64,000 bases of DNA from an uncultured Clostridia bacterium (GCA_947625125.1 CANQNF010000007.1:14667-78666), one strand, 5' to 3'; numbered from the stretch's first letter, positions 4,470 through 47,790 are shown. Notes: generated from the sequence alone by a model not told the origin. Made by a program: numbers and translations.

Positions 4470-5158
4470 TTAAAGTATCGAACATCACAAAATCCTACGG
4501 CACCGGCGGGAGCAAAAATCAGGTGTTAAAAGGCATAAGCATGCAAATCAGCGACGGCGATTTTACCGTGATTTTGGGCGCCTCGGGCTCGGGAAAATCG
4601 ACATTATTAAACGTCGTTTCGGGTCTTGAGCGCCCCGACGGCGGGAGCGTTGTTTATGATGAATGCGACATCACAAAGCTTTCCGACAGCGAACTGACTA
4701 AGTTTCGCAAGGACAACATCGGATTTATTTTCCAGCAGTATTATCTTCTGCCGAACATGACCGTTGAAAAGAACGTGCGGATGGGCGCAGATTTGGCGGA
4801 AAATCGGGAGTATAGGGAAACCGTTGCCGCCGTCGGGCTTAGGGATAAATCAAAAAAATTCCCGGGCGAGCTTTCGGGCGGGGAACAGCAGAGGGTCGCG
4901 GTCGCGCGCGCACTTGCCAAAAAGCCGAAAGTTCTGTTTTTGGACGAGCCGACGGGCGCACTCGATGAGCAGACTGGACGGCAGGTTCTCGACTATATAA
5001 ATAAACTGCATAACGAATTCGGCTTCACCGTCGTGATGGTCACGCACAACCAAAACATCGCGGAAATGGCAAGCACGGTCGTGAAGATGAACAGCGGGAA
5101 AATCTCCGAAATTTACGCCAACGACAGGCAAAAAACCGCGTATGAGATCGGGTGGTGA
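4466..5158 (+). CDS. ABC transporter ATP-binding protein (MacB/FtsE-like)
   Basis: It has Walker [10 protein letters not shown], the signature [15 protein letters not shown] and Walker [13 protein letters not shown]. Confidence 0.9.
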
Positions 5159-6306
5159 CTATGATTATCGGTATAAAAGACGCGCTGAAACTCGCCGGAA
5201 TTTCGGTCATCGCCTGCTGTGCGGTTTTCGTCTGCACGATTTTTTTGAATTATAATATCGACATCGCGGCGATGAAAAATGAGATAACAACGGCAGGCGG
5301 CATGGCGATGTATAACGCCATCGTCTCGACGGGAAAGGTCACTGCGGCCGTTTCGGGCGGATGCTTAGCGATGACTTCCGCCGTCATGCTCCTATTTTAT
5401 GTCAAAAATTATATAGATACCCACGGCAAAGAGCTCGGAATTCTTAAAGCCCTCGGGTATTCAAATATTAACATAGCTAAACATTTTTGGGCATTCGGCA
5501 TGAGCGTTTTCGCAGGCTGTTTTTTGGGATATGTTCTTGCAACTCTCTATCTCCCGACTTTTTATGAACTGCAAAATGCCGACCGACTTTTCCCCGAAAT
5601 CAGGCCGCATTTTCACCCGATTTTGGCGTTTCTTTTGGTATGCCTGCCCGCGATAATTTTCGCGATTTTGGCGGTCATTTATGCATGTTTACGGCTGAAA
5701 AGCCCGGTGCTCGACCTGCTGAAAGAGCGGCGCGAGTATAAACAAAAAACCGCCAAACGGGAGCGGGAAAGCCCGGACTTGCCGTTTATAAAAGATTTAA
5801 AGAGAAGCACGGTCCGCGGCCGAAAATCGCTTGTTTTCTTCATCGCGTTTTCTGCGTTTTGCTTCTCGGCGATGCTCCAAATGTCGGTATCGATGATTGA
5901 CCTTTCGAGCAAAGAAATGGCAGTGATGGTGCTGGCAATCGGCCTGATCCTCGCATTTGTGACGCTGATTCTGTCGCTCTCAAGCGTGGTGAAAGGAAAC
6001 GCCAAAACCATCGCGATGATGCAGGTTTTCGGCTACAAGCACAGCGACTGCGCCAAGGCGACCTTAGGCGGCTACAGGCCGTTTGCGTATCTCGGCTTCG
6101 CGCTCGGCACGGTGTATCAGTACGCGCTGTTAAAAATTATGGTGTCGGCGGTGTTTGCGGATGTGGAGAACATGCCGGAATACGGATTCGATTTTTGGGC
6201 GTGCGTGGTCGCGCTGATTCTGTTTGAGCTCGCATATGAGGCGGCAATGTGCGGCTACTCGCTGAGGATAAAGAAACTGCCGGTTAAGGGGGTTATGATG
6301 GAATGA
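5152..6306 (+). CDS. FtsX-like ABC transporter permease
   Basis: A 384-aa membrane protein with two FtsX-like segments (GILKALGYSN...; IAMMQVFGYKH...). It overlaps the upstream ATPase gene. Confidence 0.75.
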   Translation: MVTMIIGIKDALKLAGISVIACCAVFVCTIFLNYNIDIAAMKNEITTAGGMAMYNAIVSTGKVTAAVSGGCLAMTSAVMLLFYVKNYIDTHGKELGILKALGYSNINIAKHFWAFGMSVFAGCFLGYVLATLYLPTFYELQNADRLFPEIRPHFHPILAFLLVCLPAIIFAILAVIYACLRLKSPVLDLLKERREYKQKTAKRERESPDLPFIKDLKRSTVRGRKSLVFFIAFSAFCFSAMLQMSVSMIDLSSKEMAVMVLAIGLILAFVTLILSLSSVVKGNAKTIAMMQVFGYKHSDCAKATLGGYRPFAYLGFALGTVYQYALLKIMVSAVFADVENMPEYGFDFWACVVALILFELAYEAAMCGYSLRIKKLPVKGVMME

Positions 6307-27153: not shown

Positions 27154-27240
27154 GGGCGGAGCCCGTCCCGCTTCGCGGGACCTCGCCCCGGCTTCGCCGG
27201 GTCGAGCCCGGCCGCCTTTGGCGGCCGGGGGGCTCCGCCC
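27154..27240. repeat. GC-rich four-way-junction module, copy 1
   Basis: The closing stem GGGCGGAGCCC/GGGCTCCGCCC encloses three abutting hairpins at 27165-27181, 27182-27206 and 27207-27229. Confidence 0.75.
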
Positions 27241-27242
27241 CC

Positions 27243-27292
27243 GGATGCTGACGCATCCAGAATACAGAATTCAGAAGTCAGAATTCAGATTT
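27243..27292. repeat. Hairpin plus 5x7-bp iteron array (partial copy of the composite repeat)
   Basis: GGATGC-tgac-GCATCC (27243-27258) is followed by CAGAATA CAGAATT CAGAAGT CAGAATT CAGATTT (27258-27292). Confidence 0.75.
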
Positions 27293-27305
27293 TCAATGTG
27301 ACCCG

Positions 27306-28223
27306 TCACCCTTTCGTCTTTGTCAGCATCACGACTATGCAGCAGATTATCCCGCCTATCGGAAATACAACGTAAGTCGGCTCCCAAATATCAAAAACCA
27401 TTCCTATAAACAGGAACACCGCCGTCGCTGTCAGCATGACCGTGCCGCAGATTATCCCGCGAAGCCTTGCAAGCTTCTTTTCCCTCACGACTTCCGGCGG
27501 GTCTGATTCCTTGATACCCTGCTCAAAGTCGCGTTCGCGGTTATAATCCTTGACGTCGTACTTTGAGCGCATTATCCCGGCGTATATAAACATCCACACC
27601 GCAGCGGCTATGAGCGCCAGCATAATTGAAGTCGCTATCTCGCTCGGCAGCCACGAAATATATGACATCCCGCTGACAGTCGTAAGTAATATGCCTAAAA
27701 ATATGAGAGCTATGCCGCCGGCTATAAAATAGGGGAATACTCTTGTGTTGTATCTTTCGCACTCTTCGGGCGTATAAATTTCGGGCAGAACGGGGTTTGC
27801 GCGGGTATAGCTCTCGTTTCTCATGCCGAAGACCACAAACAGCGCGATCGCCGCGGCGATGAAAATAAACATTATCGCAGTGCCCACTTCATCAAGCCCG
27901 AAATACGCAAATAGGGTCGTCATCGCCACGCCGAATATTATAAGGAAAACTCCCGTCGCGATGCCCTTGGCCAATCCGTTGAAGTTTTTTTCATGTTTTA
28001 AGCGCACGTCCGTCTTGTCGATCTCGATCTGTCCCTTTATAAGCTCGTCCATCGTCACGCCGAATATGTCGCAGAGCTGAATAAGCTTATCCATTTCGGG
28101 ATAACCGCCGTCAGTCTCCCACTTGCTCACAGCCTGCCGCGAAACGTCGAGGCGTTCGGCGAGCTGCTCCTGAGAGATGCCTCTTGACTTTCTCAGGGTC
28201 TGCAAATTTTCGCTGAAGTTCAT
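27306..28223 (-). CDS. XRE HTH protein with a multi-pass membrane C-terminal domain
   Basis: This is Met17 of ORF 27306..28271. LRKSRGISQEQLAERLDVSRQAVSKWETDGGYPEMDKLIQLCDIFGVTMDEL is followed by about 6 TM helices. Confidence 0.75.
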   Translation of the reverse strand: MNFSENLQTLRKSRGISQEQLAERLDVSRQAVSKWETDGGYPEMDKLIQLCDIFGVTMDELIKGQIEIDKTDVRLKHEKNFNGLAKGIATGVFLIIFGVAMTTLFAYFGLDEVGTAIMFIFIAAAIALFVVFGMRNESYTRANPVLPEIYTPEECERYNTRVFPYFIAGGIALIFLGILLTTVSGMSYISWLPSEIATSIMLALIAAAVWMFIYAGIMRSKYDVKDYNRERDFEQGIKESDPPEVVREKKLARLRGIICGTVMLTATAVFLFIGMVFDIWEPTYVVFPIGGIICCIVVMLTKTKG

Positions 28224-28381
28224 AAATTCTTCTCCTTTAAAATGTTTTTGCCCTTTAGGGTATGCCGTCATTTTATCCCGAGCACCATTATATCACAACC
28301 AATTTTGGGTTGCAACTTAAATTTTCTTTGCCACATTTGGTTGCATGCCCCTAAAAACCGCCGAAAATCGGGTCTTACCGC

Positions 28382-33706: not shown

Positions 33707-33798
33707 GGAGCAGTATCGAAGTGGTCATAACGAGCACGACTGGAAATCGTGTGACGGTGATGAACCGTCCGAGAGTTCGAATCTCTCCTGCTCCGCCA
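33707..33798 (+). tRNA. tRNA-Ser (anticodon GGA), CCA encoded
   Basis: Hand-folded. Acceptor GGAGCAG/CTGCTCC; anticodon stem CACGA/TCGTG with loop CTGGAAA; long variable arm TGACGGTGATGAACCGTCC; T arm GAGAG-TTCGAAT-CTCTC; discriminator G then CCA. A TTGCAA/TATAAT promoter lies just upstream. Confidence 0.9.
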
Positions 33799-36876: not shown

Positions 36877-36922
36877 GCGGGTCATTGCAGCCTCTGTCAG
36901 ACCTCCTGCGCGCACCGGGCTT

Positions 36923-37005
36923 GGCGGAGCCCCACCCCTGGCTGCGCCGGGGGCCCGTCGGCTTCGCCGACGGCGTCCGTCCTGCGGACGGACGGGGGCT
37001 CCGCC
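36923..37005. repeat. GC-rich four-way-junction module, copy 2
   Basis: The closing stem GGCGGAGCCCC/GGGGCTCCGCC encloses hairpins at 36935-36952, 36955-36973 and 36975-36993. Confidence 0.75.
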
Positions 37006-37042
37006 CCGGTTGCCGCACACCCCTCATTATACCCCGACCCGC

Positions 37043-38442: not shown

Positions 38443-38526
38443 GCGAAGCCCTCGCCGGACTTCGTCCGGCGAAACGGCGCAAGCGCCGTTTTGCGGGCCC
38501 CGCTCCGCGGGGCCCGGGGGCTTCGC
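38443..38526. repeat. GC-rich four-way-junction module, copy 3
   Basis: The closing stem GCGAAGCCC/GGGCTTCGC encloses hairpins at 38452-38472, 38473-38490 and 38495-38515. Confidence 0.7.
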
Positions 38527-43102: not shown

Positions 43103-43182
43103 CGCTTCTACCTCACAGAAAAATACTTCCTCTATTATATCACGCGCCTAAAAGGCTGTCAACGGCATGATCATTCCCGAGA

Positions 43183-43296
43183 GCGGCCGAAGCGGCCGCG
43201 TCAAGAATACAGAAGTCAGATGTCAGAAGTCAGAATTTCAAGGAGCCGCCTATGGCGGCAATTTTAAAAATAGTGAACAATGCGTGCGGAACGGGC
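43183..43296. repeat. Composite repeat (hairpin / heptad iterons / hairpin / conserved tail), inverted relative to the copies at 47666 and 52595
   Basis: GCGGCCG-aag-CGGCCGC (43183-43199); CAGAAGT CAGATGT CAGAAGT CAGAATT (43210-43237); GCCGCC-tat-GGCGGC (43245-43259); tail AATTTTAAAAATAGTGAACAATGCGTGCGG. Confidence 0.8.
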
Positions 43297-47665: not shown

Positions 47666-47790
47666 CCGGGAGTGTCTTAATCGCCCGCATTATTCACAAC
47701 TTTTTAAATCGTTGCCATAGGCGACACCTTGAAATTCTGACATCTGACTTCTGACGTCTGTTTTCTGGATGTGGCCGCCTTGGCCACATC
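47666..47790. repeat. Composite repeat (tail / hairpin / heptad iterons / hairpin)
   Basis: It aligns by eye at roughly 85 percent identity over about 125 nt with 52595-52719. Heptads are at 47735-47769 and the hairpin GATGTGGCCGccttGGCCACATC is at 47768-47790. Confidence 0.8.

Follow-up and report, generated by a model that had tools for sequence, protein, structure and literature searches.

Short GC-rich extragenic palindromes that reach high copy numbers in bacterial genomes are best known from the repetitive extragenic palindromic (REP) sequences and bacterial interspersed mosaic elements (BIMEs) of Escherichia coli and the REPINs of Pseudomonas, with their associated RAYT (TnpA-REP) transposases (PMC2817692, PMC3733652). 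They lie mostly just after genes, vary between strains, can stabilise mRNA and are thought to act as single-stranded DNA hairpins. The bacterial miniature inverted-repeat transposable elements (MITEs), such as Correia/NEMIS, ERIC, RUP, BOX and Nezha, are likewise non-autonomous and intergenically dispersed, and combine terminal inverted repeats with stable folds. These are the general features in which both classes resemble the element described here, which was found in a stretch of 64,000 nucleotides (the window) from an uncultured Clostridia bacterium (GCA_947625125.1, CANQNF010000007.1:14667-78666). The window contains three intergenic modules, termed copies 1 to 3 (Table 1), in each of which a terminal inverted repeat encloses three hairpins to form a cloverleaf-like four-way junction.

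The analysis presented below suggests, with a probability of about 0.55, that all three sites represent one interspersed, non-coding repeat of nested DNA palindromes, namely a REP/MITE-like selfish element that is active as folded single-stranded DNA. They belong to what is apparently an undescribed, high-copy family of such repeats in gut Clostridia.

Structure and folding of the three modules

Each module consists of a 9–11 bp inverted repeat, GCGRAGCCC/GGGCTYCGC, placed around three near-perfect GC hairpins with stems of 7–11 bp and loops of mostly 3 nt, and these are the only stretches of the window with at least 78% GC over 60 nt. A sequence-only reading of the window had reported three such cloverleafs, and all three are present with the positions and sequences it gave. 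A covariance model built from related modules and run with filters off retrieves them as the only sites in the window at E<=0.04, the next match having an E-value of ~1; copy 1 is matched at 27156-27238 on both strands. The hairpins of copy 1 abut with zero unpaired linkers, copy 2 has single-base linkers at 36934 and 36954, and the linker of copy 3 is TT(G). The middle hairpin of copy 3 is a fully self-complementary 18-mer, which the folds draw as a stem of 7–8 bp with a 4-nt loop. In all three copies the GNA loops are on the same strand.

When all copies are folded on both strands, the minimum-energy structure is in every case the outer stem with three hairpins, with RNA and DNA parameters alike. 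The energies range from -68.9 to -88.1 kcal/mol with RNA parameters (z -4.4 to -6.2, for slightly longer stretches) and from -43 to -52 kcal/mol with DNA parameters (z -6.5 to -8.2), and 0 of 200 shuffles fold as well. Palindromic repeats are hard to assemble, and contigs often start or end inside a module (L151 7-80, L193 2-78, L265 36-111, L046 5-82 and the starts of L218 and L256; L numbers denote compared loci), as is expected if the repeat breaks short-read assemblies. The sequence-only reading had allowed for an assembly artefact. The probability that the modules are chance GC-rich palindromes or products of assembly is next to nil, given the shuffle results, the recovery of ~100 related modules across many samples, and the identity of the copies between an ENA assembly and separate Logan runs. 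Thus, copies 2 and 3 have the same sequence in an ENA assembly and in two Logan assemblies that come from separate runs (L001-L003). Copy 1 does not differ between one ENA contig and two from Logan (L270-L272), and in a second strain, represented by two further assemblies, it shows one substitution and a deletion of 1 nt. The three modules are hence confirmed as real, genuine four-way-junction-forming units.

Table 1. Positions of the modules, their parts and neighbouring features, counted from the first letter of the window
Feature	Position	Strand	Description	Basis
Copy 1, whole four-way-junction unit	27154-27240	.	GNA-type loops on - strand	sequence, folds, covariance model
Copy 1, 5' arm (terminal inverted repeat)	27154-27164	.	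GGGCGGAGCCC; itself a mini-palindrome, GGGC-GGA-GCCC	
Copy 1, hairpin 1	27165-27181	.	GTCCCGC-TTC-GCGGGAC	fold
Copy 1, hairpin 2	27182-27206	.	CTCGCCCCGGC-TTC-GCCGGGTCGAG; one C/T mismatch	fold
Copy 1, hairpin 3	27207-27229	.	CCCGGCCGCC-TTT-GGCGGCCGGG	fold
Copy 1, 3' arm (inverted repeat)	27230-27240	.	GGGCTCCGCCC	sequence, fold
Copy 2, module	36923-37005	.	arms 36923-36933 GGCGGAGCCCC and 36995-37005 GGGGCTCCGCC	
Copy 2, hairpins	36935-36953; 36955-36973; 36974-36994		loops TGC (one G.T pair); TTC; TGC	
Copy 2 with possible short outer stalk	36910-37015		upstream ACCGGG pairs with downstream CCCGGT, outside the inverted repeat	fold
Copy 3, module	38443-38526	.	arms 38443-38451 GCGAAGCCC and 38518-38526 GGGCTTCGC	
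Copy 3, hairpins	38452-38472; 38473-38490; 38494-38516		loop TTC; 18-mer; loop TCC	
HTH-membrane gene	27306-28271	-	stop codon 66 nt from copy 1	
Promoter-like site, O-acetylhomoserine sulfhydrylase gene	27098-27070		perfect -35/-10	
tRNA-Ser	33707-33798		anticodon GGA	ARAGORN, Rfam
Canonical terminator of GH94 gene	38595-38573			
Promoter-like site beyond copy 3	38366-38338			

A family of nested-palindrome repeats in gut Clostridia

Further copies were recovered by pattern scans, the carriers being all metagenomic and the module counts partly redundant across strains except where de-duplication is stated. The pattern GGCGGAGCCC-N50-80-GGGCTCCGCC, applied to 185,579 species genomes, uncovered the same architecture in at least 5 metagenome-assembled genomes (MAGs) of "uncultured Clostridia" from the rabbit gut, with further copies in these loci having GCGAAGC or GCGCAGC within the outer stem. 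A more specific pattern applied to metagenomes yielded at least ~80 modules, mostly from one uncultured human-gut lineage of ~60% GC, which is characterized by the outer stem GCGCAGCCC/GGGCTGCGC and a 75-nt unit, and for which the nearest homologue with a name, Ca. Soleaferrea, shows 38% identity. Overall, at least 102 distinct three-hairpin modules were collected.

Exactly three hairpins are found in 34 of the 37 modules that match neither scan pattern and are therefore free of selection bias. Loci fetched via a protein and not via the repeat contain 5, 2 and 3 modules in 20, 20 and 7 kb, respectively. The window has 3 modules per 64 kb, the family as a whole roughly one per 5–20 kb, and every copy examined is intergenic. 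The unit measures ~75–95 bp and its bounding inverted repeat 9–12 bp. The sequence-only reading had correctly found the closing stem to be conserved among the window copies. Across the family, the outer stem varies (CCGCAGGGC, CCGCAGGCC, TCGCAGACC, CCGCAGAAC) around an invariant core, C-GNA-G, which is always 3 nt from the junction and forms the same heptamer as the GCGNAGC mini-hairpin motif discussed below. Two features can be added to that earlier description. First, most outer arms are themselves mini-palindromes of the form GGGC-GNA-GCCC (e.g. GGGC-GCA-GCCC), so that the 3' arm is the same palindrome with a flipped loop. Second, most modules are continued outwards by an imperfect stalk that differs from locus to locus and is rich in G on the upstream and in C on the downstream side. 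Such stalks are general in the family, and copy 2 has a possible short one; the module hence often forms the apex of a more extended, imperfect palindrome.

Comparisons with described families support the earlier impression that no named family fits. An Rfam 15 scan at gathering thresholds of the window and 7 module-rich loci detects tRNAs only, and at E<=10 the best matches around the window modules score ~20 bits or less against thresholds of ~40–90. That the modules are not tRNAs, as had been stated, is borne out by the absence of any match to them from ARAGORN or, even at E<=10, from the Rfam tRNA model and by their 3-nt loops. Literature searches aimed at repeat families returned no description of the family, none of the 24 outer-repeat pattern matches listed from viral contigs has the module architecture, and a plasmid collection gave no match for the two modules used as queries.

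About 100 of the 112 matches listed from the genome scan were rejected as unrelated, comprising chance matches in Streptomyces and two other repeats. One is a MITE-like element of the Kiritimatiellia MAG JBLHHU01, with a long terminal inverted repeat, GGCGGAGCCCGCCGGGCTCCA, whose first 10 bases are common to the module outer stem, and an AT-richer, unstructured interior; it has at least 14 copies (L014, L020, L021, L027, L033, L037, L044, L062, L066, L077, L097, L102, L111 and L114). The other consists of the REP-like palindromes GGCGGAGCCCACCCTACG...CGTAGGGTGGGCTCCGCC of Marinimicrobium sp. C2-29 (L032, L055, L074) and Massilia sp. (L004, L011), of the Gamma- and Betaproteobacteria, in which the same 10-mer recurs in a different repeat family. 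Within the module family itself, L223 has two different modules in tandem (522-596 and 693-767), 97 nt apart in one intergenic region. At L144 18590-18640, extra single GNA-type hairpins (CCGCCGCCC-GTA-GGGGGGCGG) are found close to a module but outside it, so that hairpins with cGNAg caps can also stand alone at these insertion sites.

The loop signature

A census of 84 unique modules with 252 hairpins revealed a nearly uniform cap. The loop has 3 nt in 235 hairpins, the closing pair is 5'C-G3' in 246, and 200 loops (~79%) are of the type GNA (104) or TNC (96), the individual loops and their complements being GGA 42/TCC 28, GAA 33/TTC 42, GCA 25/TGC 22 and GTA 4/TAC 4. Typical RNA caps are practically absent (GNRA tetraloops 1/252, UUCG 0/252). 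Loop and closing pair together constitute the d(cGNAg)/d(GCGNAGC) mini-hairpin motif, which needs a C-G closing pair (PMC3201870) and whose RNA counterparts are much less stable (PMC13037366). Moreover, the middle base of the loops, pooled with their complements, follows the order A 75 > G 70 > C 47 > T 8 (the scan pattern having fixed one terminal loop as K-N-M, with N left free), which matches the published stability order of d(GCGNAGC), melting at 76 > 73 > 71 > 70 C for N = A, G, C and T (PMC13037366). This signature, in which the argument comes from published thermodynamics and not from our own computation, is the strongest pointer to the hairpins mattering as DNA. As the caps match a motif unusually stable in single-stranded DNA, the modules have the look of a selfish element and not of an RNA gene.

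Covariation and turnover of the palindromes

An alignment of 32 modules was used to assess how pairing is kept. Pairs are formed in 92.9% of the alignment cells against 72.4% in shuffles, and 199 cells are changed on both sides against 61 in shuffles, a value that 0 of 500 shuffles reached. In shifted registers pairing falls to 34–46%, and RNAalifold detects compensatory changes in 20 of 27 pairs. Non-Watson-Crick pairs account for ~1.3% of the 2711 pairs predicted in 81 modules. The sequence-only reading had proposed that structure is conserved while inner sequence is not. That proposal holds in so far as the inner stems differ and yet stay paired; it has to be amended in that the loops and closing pairs are strongly conserved and the inner hairpins across the family are drawn from a shared, recombining pool.

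Close relatives, with flanks 96–100% identical, show several modes of change side by side. These include pair-breaking single substitutions as well as compensated changes, exact loop flips (e.g. TTTCGGC-GGA vs TTTCGGC-TCC), and replacement of whole hairpins (e.g. CGGCGGC-TTC vs CGCCGCC-TGC). Slippage deletions also occur, as in the loss of 15 nt between two CGCAG repeats. One hairpin set is found in both orders (a-b-c and c-b-a) with its GNA loops on the same strand, and at an orthologous site (L173-B vs L267-B) the hairpin order is the same with every loop complementary; loop polarity is thus decoupled from hairpin order. The earlier claim that base pairing is what is maintained is correct in that pairing covaries strongly, but a perfect DNA palindrome is on its own no proof of selection on RNA structure. 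Because perfect arms reflect palindrome-specific DNA processes as well as selection, the covariation is not to be read as evidence for an RNA.

Dispersed paralogues and filled and empty sites

Modules with shared hairpins occur at unrelated places. Two modules of L144 have hairpins 1 and 2 in common and unrelated flanks directly outside the inverted repeat, and one hairpin set is present at 10 loci, with the similarity stopping at GGGG-repeat...repeat-CCC. Hairpin 1 of copy 1 recurs identically in the L089 and L107 modules of two other species. L089 and L107 are orthologous to each other, whereas their orthology with copy 1 was considered and rejected on account of their different flanking genes.

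Conversely, the same gene junctions may be filled in one lineage and empty in another. The mreC stop codon and the mreD ribosome-binding site are separated by ~150 nt in L173, L146 and L269 and by 22 nt in L266-L268, and two adjacent genes by ~155 nt in L144 and 7 nt in L140. L140 and L141, which have no modules in 19 kb, lack two of the modules of L144 at the corresponding gene junctions. Between gpsA and plsY there is a module in L173, L218 and L256, none in L266 and a different one in L267. The one close candidate for a clean empty site at this junction, L231 (97%), was rejected since it looks like an internal deletion that has left the stalk and one repeat arm. Beside a module site in L212 (~343-1133), ~620 extra bases relative to the 98%-identical L201 and L259 may represent another insertion.

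This polymorphism bears on the proposal that the modules are sites used by the host as DNA, namely for the binding or cleavage of a nucleoid or topology protein in the manner of BIMEs with gyrase or IHF, as a cruciform topology element, or as a signal for lagging-strand priming or restart that excludes the single-stranded-DNA-binding protein (SSB). Such a role would suit the DNA-type mini-hairpin signature, the linker-free junction, the fixed distance of the C-GNA-G core from it, and the common strand of the GNA loops in the window copies. In addition, mini-hairpins bind SSB poorly and occur at primase-dependent single-strand origins such as G4 and ssiA (review, PMC13037366). Yet the copies are polymorphic between close relatives and missing from the related L140 and L141, decay by slippage and occupy arbitrary gene junctions, and local GC skew, at 42:33, lends no clear backing to a replication-strand rule. 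A host DNA function is conceivable but fits this strain-level polymorphism poorly, and we regard it as distinctly unlikely.

Position relative to genes and transcription

Gene calls in the fetched loci were made with a heuristic of our own, in which true genes are those with GC content decreasing from the third over the first to the second codon position (GC3 > GC1 > GC2), so as to exclude shadow open reading frames (ORFs), and 96 sites were collapsed into 44 orthologous groups. The median module lies 66 nt past a stop codon. Among the orthologous groups, 27 sites are between co-directional, 6 between convergent and 7 between divergent genes. The raw data suggested that the GNA strand is the sense strand of the upstream gene (42:14), which was rejected as a strong rule when correction of gene calls and collapse of orthologues reduced the ratio to 16:10 over independent sites, with 4 more mixed. 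Some copies are within operons, as at the mreC-mreD junction and that between a short-chain dehydrogenase gene and a pseudouridine synthase gene in L144.

In the window, the earlier statement that the copies are intergenic and beside gene 3' ends is accurate, with the nearest stop codons 66, 93/103 and 78 nt away from copies 1, 2 and 3, respectively. Copy 1 follows the HTH-membrane gene on the - strand and precedes the promoter-like site of the O-acetylhomoserine sulfhydrylase gene. Copy 2 occupies the gap that separates the two own terminators of convergent GH31 and GNAT genes, and copy 3, on the - strand, comes after the canonical terminator of a GH94 gene and before another promoter-like site. 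The tRNA-Ser gene is the only RNA gene detected in the window.

Since a terminator function has been proposed for hairpin clusters just past stop codons (PMC8355165), the location of the modules close behind stops might be taken to indicate that they are hairpin-cluster terminators which halt RNA polymerase without a U-tract. This is very improbable in view of the intra-operon copies upstream of essential genes (mreD and the PBP2 gene), the supernumerary position of copies 2 and 3 next to canonical terminators, and the occurrence of both orientations, with a T-run within 70 nt at 23 of 86 module ends and an A-run after 42 of 86. Nor are the window modules intrinsic terminators, as had already been recognized, no T tract following their hairpins and the terminator scan calling none of them.

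Another possibility is a structured RNA in the 3' untranslated or inter-cistronic regions of mRNAs, which would block 3'-5' exonucleases as E. coli REPs do, or bind an RNA-binding protein. The short distance to stop codons, the 27 of 40 independent sites between co-directional genes, the copies within operons and the strong compensatory pairing are all in its favor. The loops, conversely, are of the DNA type, in a chemistry whose RNA versions are far less stable, and the GNA strand is sense at just 16 of 26 independent sites. An orthologous site can flip its loop polarity, copy 2 is between two convergent terminators and copy 3 past a canonical one, and there are neither conserved unpaired nucleotides nor an Rfam match. 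An RNA role is conceivable because some copies are certainly transcribed inside operons, but the chemistry of the loops, the mixed orientation and the positions past terminators suit it less, and we consider it rather unlikely. The sequence-only reading had offered three options, namely a structured RNA, a cruciform-forming REP-like DNA element and a recognition site for a REP-associated transposase or nuclease; the cGNAg loops, the mixed orientation, and the position of copies 2 and 3 beyond the terminators of the flanking genes favor the REP-like DNA element over a structured RNA.

Several further motifs were noticed near modules or in their loci. A conserved promoter-like block with a palindromic, operator-like GCTGTAACTATTGACATTACA ... 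TATAAT ... TGTAAC is present shortly downstream of modules in three rabbit-gut MAGs (L015 ~2760-2800, L089 ~5830-5850 and L107 ~4570-4620). A second repeated motif, at 27241-27295, 43180-43260 and 47716-47790 of the window, L006 957-1018, and L142 3645-3671 and 4572-4596, has 4–5 tandem heptads TTCTGAC/TCTGAAT (AGAATTC on the other strand) beside a short hairpin of the GGATG...CATCC type (GGATGC-TGAC-GCATCC; GATGTGGCC-GCCTT-GGCCACATC). It lies directly past stop codons, adjoins copy 1 of the module, occurs elsewhere with no module nearby, and at 43180 is flanked on both sides by short GC hairpins. L142 (3400-3470, 4775-5120) additionally contains another G-rich repeat, with a block ...GCCGAGCGAAGCGAGGC... 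and a ~130 nt duplication, in long intergenic regions around an HSP20 gene.

A possible mechanism of spread and the points that weigh against it

If the modules are selfish repeats, the element would act while its DNA is transiently single-stranded, as at replication forks or in the course of repair, each strand snapping into a linker-free four-way junction with d(cGNAg) mini-hairpin caps. The feature that is recognized and propagated would be the fold and not the inner sequence. New copies would go to intergenic DNA, usually no more than ~100 nt past a stop codon and in many cases at the tip of a pre-existing G-run/C-run palindrome, placed there by a putative trans-acting, structure-recognizing enzyme or spread by recombination among copies; the copies that fold would be the ones that spread. 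Pairing might also be kept by palindrome-specific mutation, through loop flips, hairpin exchange between copies and, presumably, hairpin-templated correction. Effects on the host, such as stabilisation of mRNA 3' ends, would be by-products.

Several observations weigh against this scenario. Among the filled and empty sites there is no pair above 97% identity with clean ends, and the P0080 contigs are all filled. No target-site duplication or direct repeat is visible at the boundaries of 63 aligned sites, the filled/empty pairs being too diverged to show a short one. Pfam scans detect no transposase or dedicated enzyme, the genes between module pairs being housekeeping genes only, and a phmmer search with E. 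coli RayT against 14,499 ORF segments gave no match in these loci, which are a small part of each genome. Hairpins could have spread by recombination or gene conversion instead of transposition. There is also evidence for a strand effect, which lends weight to the RNA alternative: the GNA strand has about double the number of G.T pairs (16 vs 7 unique events) and loop polarity is concordant within modules (18 vs 7), which indicates that some strand-specific selection exists, may stem from transcription or from replication, and could act on RNA, and the copies inside operons must be transcribed. Finally, ViennaRNA has no bonus for cGNAg loops, and the argument for DNA stability rests on published measurements and not on these folds.

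A bolder variant of the DNA reading is that the module is the substrate of a new structure-defined DNA mobility or transaction system, in which the junction and the C-GNA-G core would be recognized and the mini-hairpin caps would exclude SSB. The recognizing factor would be a junction- or hairpin-specific protein, such as a resolvase-like enzyme, a new HUH enzyme or a primase. The module itself would move as a folded junction, or else the cell would use the junctions as landmarks for lagging-strand priming or restart, and loop flipping would locally reset loop polarity. We view this variant as doubtful.

Comparison with known systems

If the interpretation as a selfish DNA repeat is correct, a prevalent uncultured Clostridia lineage of the human and rabbit gut would carry hundreds of shape-defined repeats, as extrapolated from the sampled loci. 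These would provide a natural data set on how palindromes stay perfect amid sequence turnover by compensated changes, loop flips and hairpin exchange, and would point to a putative enzyme that reads folded single-stranded DNA. As the modules break assemblies and mimic covarying structured RNAs, they should be recognized by pipelines for RNA discovery and MAG reconstruction.

Among bacterial repeats, the modules are best set beside REPs and MITEs without being members of either, because they have no GTAG/CGTC head, several hairpins, no target duplication and no RAYT in the fetched loci. A REP is one imperfect hairpin of 20–40 bp with a GTAG/CGTC head, and BIMEs are linear arrays of alternating REPs, whereas the module comprises three different perfect hairpins nested in an inverted repeat to form a four-way junction with cGNAg caps. 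The flank profile of 63 sites contains no such head, copy 1 alone happening to have GTAG. MITEs are conserved in sequence over their full length, usually have target-site duplications and are derived from insertion sequences (IS); the modules, in contrast, conserve the repeat core and architecture alone, with no duplication seen and no known parent IS.

Further afield, the inverted terminal repeat of adeno-associated virus (AAV) and other parvoviruses is a GC-rich nested palindrome, A-B-B'-C-C'-A', whose small inner arms have 3-nt loops; as single-stranded DNA it adopts the form of a branched hairpin, of which flipped versions exist. It is a three-way, T-shaped telomere that ends a linear viral genome and primes its replication. 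The modules, by contrast, have three inner arms, are internal to chromosomal contigs between housekeeping genes and were not found among the viral-contig matches listed. The integron attC sites, the attP site of phage CTX, and the G4-type and ssi/sso origins function only as folded single-stranded DNA that is recognized by structure over sequence. Each of these is one imperfect hairpin that carries specific extrahelical bases or conserved boxes and is linked to an integrase, Xer recombinase or primase and a mobile replicon, whereas no integrase, recombinase, primase or mobile replicon is seen beside the modules.

The mitochondrial GC clusters, double-hairpin elements and repetitive hairpin-forming elements of yeast (PMC4478555), sponges (PMC2800124) and Lobosphaera (PMC4524435) are similar in being GC-rich hairpin mini-elements that invade the intergenic DNA of a less GC-rich genome, are polymorphic and have no known dedicated enzyme. 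They differ in being organellar, in their sequences, in having one or two hairpins, and in lacking the four-way-junction and cGNAg rules. In their chemistry the modules correspond to the d(GCGNAGC) motif, with which they agree in loop, closing pair, outer-repeat core and middle-base preference. That motif was described as a physico-chemical curiosity, of which isolated natural examples occur at the single-strand origins of phages and plasmids, and it is not known to build a genome-wide repeat family. If our reading holds, the modules would be the first genome-wide natural use found of a mini-hairpin that for ~40 years has been mainly a biophysical oddity.

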